Source: Eledone cirrhosa
Taxonomy: Eukaryota
Assembly: GCA_964016885.1 (NCBI GenBank)
Contig: OZ024743.1
Location: forward strand, 311,798,001-311,862,000
Length of the DNA stretch: 64,000 nt
Direction of reading: 5' to 3'
Of the stretch, positions 1-63,531 are shown piece by piece; positions within the stretch are counted from its first letter, which is position 1, and each line of letters begins with the position of its first letter. The notes beneath the pieces were generated by a model. It saw nothing but the letters and a program-made list of their open reading frames with translations. It searched no databases and was not told the DNA's origin. Made by a program: the position numbers and the translations under genes.

Positions 1-2628
1 ACTTATAGAATACTTAGCTGTGTACAGGAACTGGTTTGAAAGAGCGGTTGCCGGTCCGGCAGAAATTAGAAATTGGAATAAATGCTCTGAAATAGCGATA
101 TATATGTGAATATAGACATAGAATATTCGAAAATATTCTGTATGTTTATAATAAACATTTTGAAGACCTAATCGCTATAGAATAGAATACGTCACGTATT
201 ACAATTAGATTCTCGATAAAAGCAAGGGAAGTAATCTACGCGTTTCATTCTCGTTAGAACTCATCAGGACTACATATCCAGTGCTTTTATCGAGAATGAC
301 ACAGCTAGAGACTTATAGAATACTTAGCTGTGTACAGGAACTGGTTTGAAAGAGCGGTTGCCGGTCCGGCAGAAATTAGAAATTGGAATAAATGCTCTGA
401 AATAGCGATATATATGTGAATATAGACATAGAATATTCGAAAATATTCTGTATGTTTATAATAAACATTTTGAAGACCTAATCGCTATAGAATAGAATAC
501 GTCACGTATTACAATTAGATTCTCGATAAAAGCAAGGGAAGTAATCTACGCGTTTCATTCTCGTTAGAACTCATCAGGACTACATATCCAGTGCTTTTAT
601 CGAGAATGACACAGCTAGAGACTTATAGAATACTTAGCTGTGTACAGGAACTGGTTTGAAAGAGCGGTTGCCGGTCCGGCAGAAATTAGAAATTGGAATA
701 AATGCTCTGAAATAGCGATATATATGTGAATATAGACATAGAATATTCGAAAATATTCTGTATGTTTATAATAAACATTTTGAAGACCTAATCGCTATAG
801 AATAGAATACGTCACGTATTACAATTAGATTCTCGATAAAAGCAAGGGAAGTAATCTACGCGTTTCATTCTCGTTAGAACTCATCAGGACTACATATCCA
901 GTGCTTTTATCGAGAATGACACAGCTAGAGACTTATAGAATACTTAGCTGTGTACAGGAACTGGTTTGAAAGAGCGGTTGCCGGTCCGGCAGAAATTAGA
1001 AATTGGAATAAATGCTCTGAAATAGCGATATATATGTGAATATAGACATAGAATATTCGAAAATATTCTGTATGTTTATAATAAACATTTTGAAGACCTA
1101 ATCGCTATAGAATAGAATACGTCACGTATTACAATTAGATTCTCGATAAAAGCAAGGGAAGTAATCTACGCGTTTCATTCTCGTTAGAACTCATCAGGAC
1201 TACATATCCAGTGCTTTTATCGAGAATGACACAGCTAGAGACTTATAGAATACTTAGCTGTGTACAGGAACTGGTTTGAAAGAGCGGTTGCCGGTCCGGC
1301 AGAAATTAGAAATTGGAATAAATGCTCTGAAATAGCGATATATATGTGAATATAGACATAGAATATTCGAAAATATTCTGTATGTTTATAATAAACATTT
1401 TGAAGACCTAATCGCTATAGAATAGAATACGTCACGTATTACAATTAGATTCTCGATAAAAGCAAGGGAAGTAATCTACGCGTTTCATTCTCGTTAGAAC
1501 TCATCAGGACTACATATCCAGTGCTTTTATCGAGAATGACACAGCTAGAGACTTATAGAATACTTAGCTGTGTACAGGAACTGGTTTGAAAGAGCGGTTG
1601 CCGGTCCGGCAGAAATTAGAAATTGGAATAAATGCTCTGAAATAGCGATATATATGTGAATATAGACATAGAATATTCGAAAATATTCTGTATGTTTATA
1701 ATAAACATTTTGAAGACCTAATCGCTATAGAATAGAATACGTCACGTATTACAATTAGATTCTCGATAAAAGCAAGGGAAGTAATCTACGCGTTTCATTC
1801 TCGTTAGAACTCATCAGGACTACATATCCAGTGCTTTTATCGAGAATGACACAGCTAGAGACTTATAGAATACTTAGCTGTGTACAGGAACTGGTTTGAA
1901 AGAGCGGTTGCCGGTCCGGCAGAAATTAGAAATTGGAATAAATGCTCTGAAATAGCGATATATATGTGAATATAGACATAGAATATTCGAAAATATTCTG
2001 TATGTTTATAATAAACATTTTGAAGACCTAATCGCTATAGAATAGAATACGTCACGTATTACAATTAGATTCTCGATAAAAGCAAGGGAAGTAATCTACG
2101 CGTTTCATTCTCGTTAGAACTCATCAGGACTACATATCCAGTGCTTTTATCGAGAATGACACAGCTAGAGACTTATAGAATACTTAGCTGTGTACAGGAA
2201 CTGGTTTGAAAGAGCGGTTGCCGGTCCGGCAGAAATTAGAAATTGGAATAAATGCTCTGAAATAGCGATATATATGTGAATATAGACATAGAATATTCGA
2301 AAATATTCTGTATGTTTATAATAAACATTTTGAAGACCTAATCGCTATAGAATAGAATACGTCACGTATTACAATTAGATTCTCGATAAAAGCAAGGGAA
2401 GTAATCTACGCGTTTCATTCTCGTTAGAACTCATCAGGACTACATATCCAGTGCTTTTATCGAGAATGACACAGCTAGAGACTTATAGAATACTTAGCTG
2501 TGTACAGGAACTGGTTTGAAAGAGCGGTTGCCGGTCCGGCAGAAATTAGAAATTGGAATAAATGCTCTGAAATAGCGATATATATGTGAATATAGACATA
2601 GAATATTCGAAAATATTCTGTATGTTTA
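1..2628 (-). repeat. Tandem array of apparently identical 310-bp units (8 full plus about 0.5; runs off the window start); hammerhead-bearing retrozyme-like repeat
   Basis: Unit start acttatagaatacttagctg recurs at 1, 311, 621, 931, 1241, 1551, 1861, 2171 and 2481. Each full unit has a minus-strand HHR, e.g. 231-273, 541-583 ... 2401-2443. Confidence 0.95.
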
Positions 2629-3338
2629 TTATAAACATACAGAATATTTTCGAATATTTTCGAATATTCTATGTCTATATTCACATATATATCGCTATTT
2701 CAGAGCATTTATTCCAATTTCTAATTTCTGCCGGACCGGCAACCGCTCTTTCAAACCAGTTCCTGTACACAGCTAAGTATTCTATAAGTCTCTAGCTGTG
2801 TCATTCTCGATAAAAGCACTGGATATGTAGTCCTGATGAGTTCTAACGAGAATGAAACGCGTAGATTACTTCCCTTGCTTTTATCGAGAATCTAATTGTA
2901 ATACGTGACGTATTCTATTCTATAGCGATTAGGTCTTCAAAATGTTTATTATAAACATACAGAATATTTTCGAATATTCTATGTCTATATTCACATATAT
3001 ATCGCTATTTCAGAGCATTTATTCCAATTTCTAATTTCTGCCGGACCGGCAACCGCTCTTTCAAACCAGTTCCTGTACACAGCTAAGTATTCTATAAGTC
3101 TCTAGCTGTGTCATTCTCGATAAAAGCACTGGATATGTAGTCCTGATGAGTTCTAACGAGAATGAAACGCGTAGATTACTTCCCTTGCTTTTATCGAGAA
3201 TCTAATTGTAATACGTGACGTATTCTATTCTATAGCGATTAGGTCTTCAAAATGTTTATTATAAACATACAGAATATTTTCGAATATTCTATGTCTATAT
3301 TCACATATATATCGCTATTTCAGAGCATTTATTCCAAT
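2629..3338 (+). repeat. Inverted arm (about 2.25 units) of the 310-bp repeat, ending in (TA)n
   Basis: Reverse complement of the left array. The junction lies at the unit's own hairpin tgtttataataaaca, with a 10-bp duplication (cgaatatttt). Confidence 0.95.
2827..2869 (+). ncRNA. Type I hammerhead ribozyme (310-bp family); second plus copy at 3137-3179
   Basis: GTAGTC-CTGATGA-GTTCT(AACG)AGAAT-GAAA-C(GC)G-TA^-GATTAC. Stem I is GTAGTC/GATTAC and extends through TTCTCGATAAAAGCA/TGCTTTTATCGAGAA (15 bp). Predicted cleavage after 2863. Confidence 0.9.
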
Positions 3339-3380
3339 ATATATATATATATATATATATATATATATATATATATATAT

Positions 3381-61683: not shown

Positions 61684-63220
61684 TTACTCCTCATCCTTAA
61701 CCCATCTGAAGAAGGATATTTTTAAGCGATGTGTACAACTTATCGCTGTATCAGCTCTTCTGTTGATGAGCTCGTGGGGTGCAGTTATGATGTAGTAGAG
61801 CTCCATGAGGCAAAGTTCGCACTTCCTCTTGAATTTGTACGGTGCAGCCCTGCCGACAATATCCCAGTGCGTGGAGAAGCTGATGTTTAAGTCTTTTAAT
61901 GATGTGATGTAGTCCGCGAGCGAAGTGGAGTGTCTTAGTTTTTTATTTGTGAAAGAGTGGAGATGTATTCGAAACCTAATTTTGTACGGGCCGGAGGTAG
62001 CCCCTATATAATGTTTAACGCTATTGTGGCTAGTTACAGTGCATCTATATATAACCCTATTAGTCAAGCAGTATCCTCTAAGGGGGCAGCGTCCTCTGTC
62101 GCGGCAGTTGCAATTTCTGTCGCGGTTCCATCTATTTCCCACGGTAAGGCTATGATTGTTGCTGCCTACGTTGTTACCTACGCTCCCGCAGCTGTCGTTA
62201 GCACCATTACAACCCACAGCACGCGGGGTTGGTGCGATTGTTATTCCGCACGTCATGTCCTGCATGTTCCCCAGTCATTTCGCGGTTATGCTGGTTGCGT
62301 CTGCGGAGGCCGTTGCCAGCACTATTGGATGCTGCTAGGGAGTTGTTAAGGCCGATATAGTTATTGTCAGGTGTAGGTGCGTCTGTGTCGAGGTGCTGTG
62401 TCTTGATGATCTTACTGTGGTTCGTTGTTCCTATGATGTCTGCTAGGTTAGGAGTAGTAGAGAAGGATATTTTTATATTGTTCCTATTGAGAATTTTTCT
62501 ATACCTATGGTTGGGCGGGAAGTTCTTCTCTAAGGCTTCGAAGAATATCCAGGGTATGTTGGAGGCCACACTCCGAGAATAGGGGGGTGGGTGGAACCAT
62601 AGGACGTTACAGTGGCGATTACGTGTCCTTGTACGTTTGCTACGGGTGGTTACATCTAGGTGACCGCTCTTATGTATGTTAATGCGCTGTAGCCCGTTAA
62701 GTGCCCCTTTCACTTTATGCTCGGGTGCACTCTTCTTCCCTCTTCCATGTTTATGTACAGGAAGATGTTGGTTGGAAGGCGTTGGTAGTAGGCCGTCGCC
62801 TTTGTTGGTTTTGTAGTAGGGGAATAGTTCGAGTAATCTACAGTGGTCACCGTCGCCGGGGTCGTGATCTTTAGTGCGATTATCTATTCTATTATATCCG
62901 ACTTCAACGAGGTCGCTGCGTGATCGGTTATAGGTATGGCTTACTATAACGTTCGTTTTATGAGGGGGGGGGGGTTCTAGAGCTAGCGTTAGGGATGTAG
63001 GAAATTCCTCGGTTAAAGCCGGCGCTTATCAAGGCCCTATTGTAGTAATCTGCCGCTTGGTTGAAGATATCCTCATTGGCGGATAGCCTCGAGATTCTAT
63101 GTGAGATACTACAGACTATGGAGTTGAGAGTCTGCTTAGGGTGGTTGGAGGCATAATTAATATAAGAGAGGCACTCTCCAGGCTTATGGTATGGCTTGTA
63201 TAAGCCCGTACTCAACTTCA
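61684..63220 (-). pseudogene. Nematis-like PLE thumb, linker and GIY-YIG, 5'-truncated at (TA)n, frameshifted
   Basis: YKPYHKP...YINYASNHP, VLWFHPPPYS...FPPNHRYRKILNRNNIKISFS, CNCRDRGRCPLRGYC..VIYRCTV..YIGAT...CELCLMELYYI...LINRR. Confidence 0.85.
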
Positions 63221-63486
63221 TATATATATATATATATATATATATATATATATATATATATATATATATATTTCGTTTCTGAATTTGTTTAGCAAGATTC
63301 TTTATCTGAAATCGTGTGTTGAAACCGATATTGTTATACTTTGGGAGGGTCATGTTGCCAATAAGAAACACACGCACCAGTTGCTTTCACTTCAATTTAA
63401 TTTATTAAATATTTATAAATTTACAAATTTATAAATTTCTGGTTGGTTGGTTGGTTCCACAACCAGATAGTTGTTTATATATATAT

Positions 63487-63531
63487 AGTCATAGTTCTTT
63501 CGTCACACACTCTGTGACCTCTTCAGTGACT
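63487..63531 (-). ncRNA. Type I hammerhead ribozyme in PLE 3' UTR
   Basis: Identical to 59996-60040 and about 285 nt downstream of the GIY-YIG stop. Confidence 0.85.

Follow-up and report, generated by a model that had tools for sequence, protein, structure and literature searches.

The 64,000-nt window analyzed here, that is, the whole stretch of DNA under study, contains repeats that carry predicted hammerhead ribozymes (HHRs) and lie in (TA)n tracts, and it raises the question of what moves them. A first-pass annotation had listed ten such motifs. We consider it probable that the window is a dense sample of genome-wide (TA)n-inserting elements with predicted HHRs. In this view, four of the ten listed motifs mark PLE tails, and the remaining six lie in ORF-less units whose copying is likely done in trans by reverse transcriptase-endonucleases of PLEs.

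The window was scanned with a strict type I HHR descriptor, consisting of the CUGANGA, GAAA and UH boxes and stems I-III. Eighteen motifs were found, ten in the 310-bp array and the others at 4900, 6905, 11647, 16413, 17904, 58426, 60001 and 63526. No strict match was found in 30 local shuffles or in a complement-only control, and with the core widened to U3-A8, 3 of 30 shuffles yielded one match each. This contrast (18 versus 0-1) supports the annotated presence of HHR-bearing repeats across the window. Three other motifs, 4036-4129 and 61268-61307 (both U3-A8) and 22317-22378, failed the strict descriptor, yet they fold by hand and their layout is kept in their family copies. The motif at 21381, annotated as an HHR, has only 2 contiguous stem I pairs in its commonest family version and is better called HHR-like. 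Family copies were taken as the best BLAST matches (30 per family), a sample biased to young copies spanning the HHR, and the fold was kept in 99 of 120 (630 bp, 30/30; 658 bp, 23/30; 421 bp, 20/30; 720 bp, 26/30). The HHR motifs are, as judged from these comparisons, real sequence features with a genome-wide spread, and self-cleavage is predicted. Circular folding z-scores of -1.7 to -8.8 (20 crude shuffles) indicate structure, not function. The hammerhead model was absent among the 150 of 330 Rfam matches listed at E up to 10. Those listed were mostly microRNA-like and lay on TA/TG repeats. Three HHR features were missing from the annotated list:

10925-10987, - strand: HHR of a further abundant family
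40512-40649, fold-back: end of another HHR family, with a bulged hairpin at 40512-40530
52277-52547, fold-back: end of another HHR family, whose + arm begins at the predicted cleavage site

The four PLE tails are those with the motifs at 4040, 21381, 59996/63487 and 61297. The repeat at 4040 had been annotated as a small 850-bp family and belongs instead to a 3.2-kb Hydra-type PLE, of which it forms the 3' tail. The five annotated PLE coding remnants (12617-14686, 20441-21112, 28311-30140, 61687-63221 and 63819-63998) were confirmed. The PLE features are as follows:

3382-4266, + strand: Hydra-type PLE 3' tail, with a short inverted arm (3382-3415), a main arm (3416-4145) and a separate tail piece (4177-4266)
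4036-4129, + strand: HHR of this tail; the core is U3-A8, stem II is long and stem III has 4 bp
12105-15398, two-armed: young PLE with RT and C-terminal GIY-YIG with CCHH, a 39-nt tail on the right arm only, and an HHR-like motif at 15105-15143 without the CUGANGA box
20441-21620, + strand: 5'-truncated Neptune-like PLE with thumb, endonuclease and tail; HHR-like motif at 21376-21419 with a 2-bp stem I
28311-30140, - strand: broken Neptune-like coding remnant with RT and GIY-YIG, behind which no strict HHR was found
35024-35537, fold-back: two PLE tails inserted into (TA)n, one Hydra-type (35024-35224), the other Neptune-like (35299-35537)
23967-24104, 37115-37190, 42378-42567 and 60854-60980: further Hydra-type tail pieces
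59816-60245, fold-back: Neptune-like PLE tail, HHR at 59996-60040
61061-63219, - strand: 5'-truncated Hydra-type PLE, U3-A8 HHR at 61268-61307
63272-64000, - strand: left arm of a two-armed Neptune-like PLE with the endonuclease end at 63819-63998 and an HHR at 63487-63531; its mirror arm lies right of the window

By their motifs, the parents of the 4040 and 61297 tails match Hydra-clade PLEs. They have RWK and DKT motifs, a CxCX5C linker and a C-terminal endonuclease without CCHH (compared by eye), and they combine (TA)n insertion with an HHR in the pseudo-LTR (pLTR). The label Neptune-like comes from a linker motif and not from a tree: the Neptune clade has a CX2-5CxxC linker ahead of a GIY-YIG domain with CCHH, and here the linker reads CX4CxxC in the 63819 family and in the 28311 remnant and is altered in 20441, and the GIY-YIG domains of these elements score below the Pfam cut-off. 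The families had also been called unrelated, which does not hold for the 21381 and 59996/63487 tails; these are homologous (78% over 54 nt, with endonucleases alike at 56% of residues). Words from the 63272-63660 tail were too common for a genome search, and background loci were used in its place.

On sequence grounds, the 310, 421, 630, 658 and about 720-bp families are ORF-less tandem non-LTR retrozymes, a known class. Their units, a few hundred bases long and each with one type I HHR, are repeated in tandem, and the GC content is 0.33-0.37; no LTR features were found in these five families, and their window copies contained no ORF of at least 120 aa, frames through TA repeats excepted. First-look candidates numbered 1,833-3,417 per family for four families and were spread over many contigs; 310-bp arrays lay on six contigs among 13 scored places. 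The annotated form of a unit plus a partial unit in tandem was seen in all five families, where most 658 and 720 copies comprise 1-2 units, but not in the window copies of the 4040 and 22315 repeats. The 22315 repeat is a tandem unit of roughly 2.7 kb (two genomic loci) with no recognisable ORF (none over 83 aa there); it is PLE-sized, falls outside the short tandem units of retrozymes and may be a decayed PLE. The window copies are as follows:

1-3338, two-armed: 310-bp retrozyme, 10.2 units on the - strand and 2.3 units on the + strand with a head-to-head joint at 2622-2638; it extends 523 nt left of the window, and its outer ends, unit positions 139 and 165, both lie in (TA)n
231-273, - strand: type I HHR of the 310-bp unit, the first of 10 in the window, with a 4-nt palindromic stem III
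4321-5227, + strand: 630-bp retrozyme, 1.46 units, one-armed, TA either side
4894-4975, + strand: its HHR, with a 7-bp stem III; bulged hairpin of the same copy at 4607-4628
6290-7144, two-armed: 421-bp retrozyme with ends 266 and 215; HHR at 6899-6941 (+) and decayed partner at 6551-6593 (-)
11397-11936, - strand: copy of the 421-bp family carrying a short fold-back, HHR at 11611-11653
58129-59247, two-armed: 421-bp family, HHR at 58390-58432 (-) and decayed partner at 59015-59057 (+)
15413-17033, - strand: 658-bp retrozyme, 2.49 units, TA either side; HHR at 16331-16418 and bulged hairpins at 16680-16715 and 16586-16603, beyond its two fixed ends
17322-18189, + strand: about 720-bp retrozyme (711 in the window copy), 1.24 units, one-armed
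17900-18013, + strand: its HHR, with a long stem II
22101-22500, - strand: 3' end of an old unit of the 22315 family, HHR at 22317-22378

The ends of these elements were then compared. In four families together, 94 of 111 copies have (TA)n next to their 3' end, versus 5.9% of random positions, as the annotation had claimed. The 3' ends of the 630, 658, 421 and 720 families cluster at one or two fixed positions, 190-390 nt downstream of the predicted cut: 24 of 25 ends at 266-268 (630), all 27 at 278-280 or 383-386 (658), 22 of 29 at 215 or 266 (421), and 28 of 30 at 190-193 (720). Each arm has one fixed end and one variable end, the 5' end. Two-armed insertions pair the two different ends in the 310-bp (9/9) and 658-bp (12/12) families, in the Hydra-type PLE (38/47) and in the Neptune-like PLE (6/6); the masked count of 12 was used for the 658 pairs since the unmasked inverted count of 14 was inflated by matches between internal TA-rich stretches. 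Only 9 of 21 pairs in the 421-bp family lie within 1 nt of its two main ends, and two arms are nearly absent from the 630 (1 pair in 44 loci) and 720 (0 in 45) families. The traits of PLE-type insertion, namely 5' truncation, partial tandems, an inverted 5' copy and a one-sided tail, were found in the 310, 421 and 658 families and in the coding PLEs. The end spacing of the 310 and 421 families is short, 26-51 nt, as in the Neptune-like PLEs here, and the DNA end of the Hydra PLE lies immediately ahead of the following unit's start codon.

These footprints suggest that retrozyme RNAs are likely mobilized by PLE protein. The endonuclease would cut both strands of a (TA)n tract, each 3' end would use one of two start sites inside a shared RNA, at a short stretch rich in UA, to prime cDNA, and the two cDNAs would join head to head. 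Copying does not stop at the predicted HHR cut site: only 6 of 518 bystander fragments begin there, with no pile-up of 5' ends, and 335 extend past it (the 10981 family was left out because its reference ran into another repeat). The template would thus be uncut or rejoined. Twelve of 14 310-bp arrays carry a single haplotype in all units and both arms, 2 change haplotype midway, and nine unit-private changes recur nowhere else. Such one-haplotype arrays favor a circular template, and for this family the most likely template, slightly more probable than not, is a monomer that cleaved itself, rejoined as a circle and was copied over many rounds. The 630-bp arrays do not favor a circle, as they are heterogeneous, with unit-private changes of which some are common to neighboring units. 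A single 340-nt contig (one unit plus overlap), found in 2 of four runs of unspecified kind compared with a 310-bp array, was rejected as evidence for circles, as a tandem array yields such a contig as readily.

The strongest alternative keeps the same PLE-driven insertion and replaces the circle by an uncut linear multimer from a tandem source array, with the HHR a passenger or late-acting and the arrays made uniform by DNA-level expansion. The missing 5' pile-up suits uncut RNA equally well, and the shared changes in 630-bp arrays fit it. With the Poseidon_Ac PLE protein in vitro, both strands are cleaved and extended and two internal start sites define the tail, which supports the insertion model above (Frangieh et al. 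2024, PMC11167929). In the same study HHR mutants insert normally, reads ending at the cut site are absent, the protein mainly uses unprocessed RNA, and the start site has no homology to the cut DNA; these latter findings weaken the circle and UA-pairing steps. Also, only one of nine Xenopus dimers cleaved in vitro, according to the available text of Li, Clavereau and Pollet 2026 (bioRxiv 10.64898/2026.07.22.740005). Against the multimer, seven 310-bp arrays have array-wide variants in both arms while unit-private changes never recur at another locus, so that a one-unit bottleneck followed by growth to 7-14 units would be needed, and families that otherwise differ have retained the catalytic core and its stems. 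On balance, the uncut multimer seems rather unlikely.

Another possibility is that the small families are solo or tandem pseudo-LTRs of unsampled PLEs with no independent life. This is correct for the "850-bp family", the 22315 unit is PLE-sized, only the best 30 copies per family were compared, and in the portion of the Xenopus preprint available to us, 21 of the TE matches of retrozyme families are PLE termini. PLE coding sequence was found upstream on the same strand of 10/30 (4040), 22/30 (21381) and 29/30 (61297) tails. The corresponding counts were 1/30 for 630, 0/30 for 658, 0/30 for 421, 1/30 for 720 and 0/30 for 22315, and the single 630 and 720 cases are interrupted by TA tracts or other inserts. 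No joined PLE ORF was found in 120 loci of the small families or in 89 310-bp matches; what precedes a unit in the 310, 421, 630, 658 and 720 families is the same unit again, up to 14 turns. Pseudo-LTRs are an improbable account of these families. Satellites or MITE-like DNA elements spread by recombination in TA tracts, with incidental HHR matches, are very improbable: many short copies do resemble perfect palindromes with TA flanks and TA tracts make up 4% of the genome sample, but the arms have polarity, with one fixed and one variable end, a fixed tail sets the two outer ends apart, which is not so in terminal inverted repeats, and the motifs are missing from shuffles.

A bulged hairpin is a candidate link between some of the families and the PLE enzymes likely to copy them:

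4195-4218, + strand: bulged hairpin immediately beyond the Hydra-type PLE's first fixed end, with further occurrences at 23979, 35153, 37119, 42426 and 60909

It lies just past the ends in both Hydra PLEs and in the 630 and 658 families, the 22315 family is linked likewise, and the 310 and 421 families are without it. It was found at 7 of 18 other ends versus 0.9% of random positions. At the second end of the 61297 PLE, a previously unseen hairpin was then found in 16 of 25 copies; the second 630-bp hairpin had no insertion end (0/34). The descriptor was written after most of the test sequences had been viewed and, with long loops, gives 12-32 matches per shuffled window, so only the position of the hairpin counts. 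The small families have no other sequence in common with the PLE tails: the pairing of families with tails proposed in the annotation yielded, by BLAST, only a 21-nt opposite-strand match (E 0.006). In Hydra-type PLEs and the 630, 658 and 22315 families, the start would be set by this hairpin, which lies 0-10 nt beyond each end, and the 310 and 421 families, with no hairpin and short end spacing, would be served by Neptune-like enzymes. A broader reading is tentative, and we hold it to be somewhat less probable than its opposite: on the order of 200,000 HHR motifs in dozens of families would form two retrozyme guilds by copying signal, twin bulged hairpin (Hydra-type enzymes) versus short tail (Neptune-like), and in each insertion a single RNA circle made by the ribozyme would be copied from two fixed sites, once from either end of a cut (TA)n tract. 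If true, this genome would supply direct evidence that retrozymes and PLEs pass through the circular life cycle proposed for them.

Evenly spaced genome samples gave 39 strict HHR matches in 600 kb, about 65 per Mb, which extrapolates to roughly 195,000 strict motifs; per-family matches in this sample (0-15) are too few for copy-number estimates. The window is about 2.6x denser, with 9 strict insertions where resampling gives 3.5 on average per 64 kb (P about 0.03). The idea of the window as a special hotspot was rejected by this resampled comparison. The 13 families occupy 16,213 of 64,000 bases, a quarter of the window and not most of it, less than the annotation had expected in suggesting that much of the unique DNA may be ribozyme retroposons. 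Its picture of an unusually diverse parasite community of PLE machinery fits in one respect, since the two fixed ends, the mirror-image arms and the (TA)n junctions of the neighboring coding PLEs are found in the ORF-less HHR units as well; the diversity is a property of the genome and not special to the window. Three outcomes named beforehand as contrary to the annotation were unconserved HHR pairings, no TA enrichment and all families known pLTRs, and none was seen in full.

The element classes themselves are known, and the ends mapped here hint at which enzyme copies which family. Non-LTR retrozymes were described by Cervera and de la Pena 2020 (PMC7229834), and a PLE origin was proposed by Li, Clavereau and Pollet 2026. 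As far as the available text of these sources goes, metazoan non-LTR retrozymes resemble the families here in being ORF-less, low-GC (33-37%) tandem 310-720 bp units with one type I HHR each, dispersed as monomers to multimers and co-occurring with PLEs; their descriptions there do not include (TA)n junctions, fixed internal ends, two arms or an end hairpin. Expression and circles have been shown for retrozymes elsewhere, and those here are known from the genome alone. (TA)n-inserting Hydra PLEs were described by Craig et al. 2021 (PMC8557442). In the parts available, Hydra clade C-terminal EN+ PLEs, including Hydra-1_Obim, share RWK-like and DKT motifs, the CxCX5C linker, CxxC and CxH and no CCHH, as well as (TA)n insertion, HHRs, and tandem and inverted copies with a one-sided tail. 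The Hydra-type tails here are longer (80-150 nt versus 30-40) and have U3-A8 cores and many non-coding satellites, and the twin hairpin is not part of that description as available. HHRs in PLE ends were reported by Cervera and de la Pena 2014 (PMC4209133), who, in the text available, propose more-than-unit copying of a circle. Their minimal HHRs agree with those here in the additional base ahead of stem II, the short palindromic stem III, the U3-A8 covariation, the opposite-strand pairs and the mostly truncated copies, whereas several families here have a very long stem II or a full stem III. The HHR numbers here are an order of magnitude over the 2,000-9,000 given there, with different descriptors. 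Poseidon_Ac is alike in cutting and extending both strands, in its two internal start sites and in its AT-rich targets. It differs in that ends here coincide with TA-like stretches, and the elements here are either non-coding or from different clades.

The mover enzyme of animal retrozymes and circle copying by PLEs are, in the literature available to us, proposed and not demonstrated. The families provide short and young templates that encode no protein and whose ends are mapped, together with a hairpin that may serve in recognition and with candidate helper clades, and these questions can thus be addressed with small RNAs and one purified protein. Given the HHR density, many of the repeats called "unknown" and of the MITE-like palindromes in such genomes probably represent PLE-type ends that were misread. 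A U-U pair at the base of stem II was also seen here, as in the axolotl retrozymes.

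The Rfam search of the window gave no hammerhead model among the matches listed and, therefore, we wrote our own type I descriptor, consisting of the CUGANGA, GAAA, and UH boxes and stems I-III. The window is 36% G+C and has many TA tracts. The strict descriptor matched it 18 times, compared to no matches in 30 local shuffles or in the complement-only control, which supports the hammerhead ribozyme (HHR) motifs of the first-pass annotation as sequence features.

Strict HHR matches in the window
Ten matches: within the 310-bp array
Single matches: 4900, 6905, 11647, 16413, 17904, 58426, 60001, 63526

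Mismatches in stem I or II kept three other motifs (4036-4129, 22317-22378, and 61268-61307) from passing the strict descriptor. Their aligned family copies preserve the HHR layout, with the exact family pattern unbroken in 10/30, 5/30, and 10/30 copies, respectively. Two of the three have a U3-A8 core, which PMC4209133 gives for Schistosoma Penelope-like elements (PLEs). The Hydra-type PLE tail (L031-L060) has two subfamilies, U3-A8 and C3-A8, and the mismatched C3-A8 core was seen in 6 of 10 otherwise intact copies. An HHR had also been assigned to the PLE tail at 21381; a motif is present there (21376-21419), but its commonest family version has just two contiguous stem I pairs. A young PLE with two mirror-image arms has motifs at 15105-15143 and 12315-12353 that correspond to just the right-hand part of an HHR, with stem II, GAAA, and the palindrome; the CUGANGA box is missing in all five versions seen.

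The diverse collection of HHR families reported for the window is real, but it is a property of the genome rather than of the window. Sixty evenly spaced 10-kb stretches (600,000 bases of the 3.0-Gb genome) contained 39 strict matches, compared to 0-2 in five shuffles. These matches represent 32 insertions; resampling puts the mean for 64 kb at 3.5, and the window has nine (P about 0.03). Extrapolated to the whole genome, strict motifs would number about 195,000 (bootstrap range 105,000-305,000). TA tracts make up 6.1% of the window and 4.2% of the genome sample. Strict matches in 1.70 Mb of fetched DNA formed 31 clusters, 17 of them at two or more loci; looser settings, which had no shuffle control, gave 48 clusters, 21 of them with at least three members. 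In flanking DNA, there are at least 11 more HHR clusters of at least three copies each (L241, L067, L036, L177, L071, L220, and others), most with two preferred 3′ ends. In the giant squid genome, 235 Rfam hammerheads were counted (PMC6962438).

The five PLE coding remnants described earlier are present in the window. The 850-bp family at 4040, first read as small and separate, runs on upstream into a frame that encodes reverse transcriptase and endonuclease, and its full unit is about 3.2 kb long (L253, L255). The proteins of this parent and of the 61687-63221 remnant share the RWK-like, DKT, CxCX5C, CxxC, and CxH motifs described for the Hydra clade, a likeness judged by eye against Hydra-1_Obim. 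Longer Hydra-type ORFs adjoin fetched copies (L256 4747-7241 and L257 691-2886), and several Hydra lineages coexist in the genome. The motif at 59996/63487 is the tail of another, Neptune-like PLE, whose endonuclease starts at 63819 and has a mirror copy in L259. This PLE is homologous to the one at 21381, so, contrary to the first-pass annotation, the families are not all unrelated.

For the 4040, 21381, and 61297 tails, same-strand PLE coding sequence lay upstream in 10/30, 22/30, and 29/30 copies, respectively. The corresponding counts were 1/30, 0/30, 0/30, 1/30, and 0/30 for the 630-bp, 658-bp, 421-bp, 720-bp, and 22315 families, and TA tracts or other inserts intervene in the two single cases (630 and 720). 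The unit whose 3′ end makes up the 22315 copy is older and measures about 2.7 kb, and two long copies of it contain no frame above 83 aa. The 310, 421, 630, 658, and roughly 720-bp families consist of tandem units with one HHR apiece. These ORF-less families have the sequence traits of non-LTR retrozymes, as given in PMC7229834 and in bioRxiv 10.64898/2026.07.22.740005, and would belong to that class with self-cleavage as a prediction. The remaining HHR-bearing pieces are PLE tails of kinds already described. The feature first noticed is real, with its details partly misread, and comprises new members of two known classes. Our search, which covered few subscription journals, found no publication on these families, on two-armed retrozymes, or on the end hairpin described below; the insertion footprint and the candidate helper signal were not found in print.

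Insertion ends were mapped at 120 loci of four families, and 111 were kept after excluding seven that duplicated an insertion or locus already counted and two that ran off the fetched DNA. Measured from the predicted cut, the 3′ ends lay at 266-268 nt (24/25) in the 630-bp family, 278-280 or 383-386 nt (27/27) in the 658-bp family, 215 or 266 nt (22/29) in the 421-bp family, and 190-193 nt (28/30) in the 720-bp family. Every main 3′ end falls on a short TA-like run within the unit. Directly after the 3′ end, (TA)n followed in 94 of the 111 copies, compared to 5.9% of random positions, which bears out the proposed enrichment at junctions. The 5′ ends were scattered. Copies longer than one unit (84/111) were favored by queries that spanned the HHR.

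Two-armed insertions, in which mirror-image arms are joined head to head, pair two different ends. All nine such 310-bp insertions with readable ends pair end 139 with end 165-170; among the other 310-bp arrays, an N-run has removed one end at L247, three loci have a single arm, and one array begins outside the stretch. The same rule held in 12/12 pairs of the 658-bp family, 38/47 of the Hydra-type tail, and 6/6 of the Neptune-like tail, and just 9/21 pairs of the 421-bp family came within 1 nt of it. Inverted pairs were scarce in the 630-bp (1 in 44 loci) and 720-bp (0 in 45) families. Tandem and inverted copies, a one-sided tail of 30-40 bp, and (TA)n targets appear for PLEs in PMC8557442. 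In PMC11167929, a PLE protein was shown to cut both strands, extend them, and begin copying at two internal sites, which define the tail.

Both Hydra PLEs and the 630-bp and 658-bp families have, 1-7 nt beyond their ends, a hairpin of the form RYTC-stem-TH-GARY, whose outer pairs covary. It was found at 7/18 further ends, compared to 0.9% of random positions, with a descriptor composed after most of the tested sequences had been seen. In a blind check with the 61297 PLE, a hairpin occurred about 70 nt past the cut in 16/25 copies, just beyond the second end mapped earlier at 61 nt. A longer-loop hairpin occurred in 7/35 copies of the 22315 family. Since the long-loop pattern arises by chance 12-32 times per shuffled window, the evidence for the hairpin lies in position alone. 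The hairpin was absent at ends of the 310-bp (0/17, 0/6), 720-bp (0/3), and 421-bp (0/50, 2/48) families and the Neptune-like tail (0/38, 0/4). End spacing is 26-58 nt in families lacking the hairpin and about 70-150 nt in those with it. The pairing of retrozyme families with helper PLEs, whose enzymes would copy the ORF-less units, is one that we infer: Hydra-type enzymes would serve the 630-bp and 658-bp families, and Neptune-like enzymes the 310-bp and 421-bp families.

Among 518 fragments of 14 families collected without query selection (the 10981 row was left out), six begin no more than 3-4 nt from the cut site, and 335 extend beyond it. The template RNA was, therefore, continuous across the cut site, either uncut or rejoined. 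Of 14 arrays of the 310-bp family, 12 have a single haplotype throughout, in every unit and in both arms; seven of these 12 carry array-wide variants, and nine unit-private changes recur nowhere. This pattern points to a one-unit bottleneck, as expected if a self-cleaved, rejoined monomer circle was copied; circle-type copying was proposed in PMC4209133 and PMC7229834. On the other hand, the 630-bp arrays are heterogeneous, and the Poseidon protein in vitro does not need HHR cleavage and uses a start site lacking homology to the target (PMC11167929), which weakens the case for a circle. On balance, we lean slightly toward a circle as the template of the 310-bp family. The haplotype switches midway in 2 of the 14 arrays. 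The 14-unit array at L247 2092-6414 switches among three haplotypes that are fixed, one by one, in different arrays elsewhere, possibly through template switching. The 5′ ends of short Hydra-type fragments (23967-24104, 35024-35224, 42378-42567, and 60854-60980) cluster within the long stem II, at 25-52 nt upstream of the cut, which suggests that copying stalls or the two cDNAs pair there.

The window also contains other elements. Direct repeats of about 390 bp (91% identical) mark a deleted LTR retroelement; the first repeat is followed by a primer-binding-like site, and a purine tract precedes the other one. A SINE-like repeat of roughly 190 bp has many copies and no HHR by the strict descriptor. 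The frame at 30713 has no Pfam match, and from its motif we take it to resemble a CR1/L2-type end.

Other elements in the window
18283-18665 and 19948-20340: direct repeats of the LTR retroelement
9675-9861, 22861-22972, 24174-24360, 31500-31690, 32703-32867, 33073-33243, 34366-34556, 42001-42192, 56311-56512: SINE-like repeat
30713-31168, 38134-38667 (zf-RVT at 38134), 43538-43984 (RVT_1 at 43541): other non-LTR retrotransposon fragments
8569-8650, 22973-23126, 52598-52837, 53101-53291: additional near-perfect palindromes, of which two have TA tracts on both sides
32249-32277: short telomere-like repeat, about five GGGTTA units
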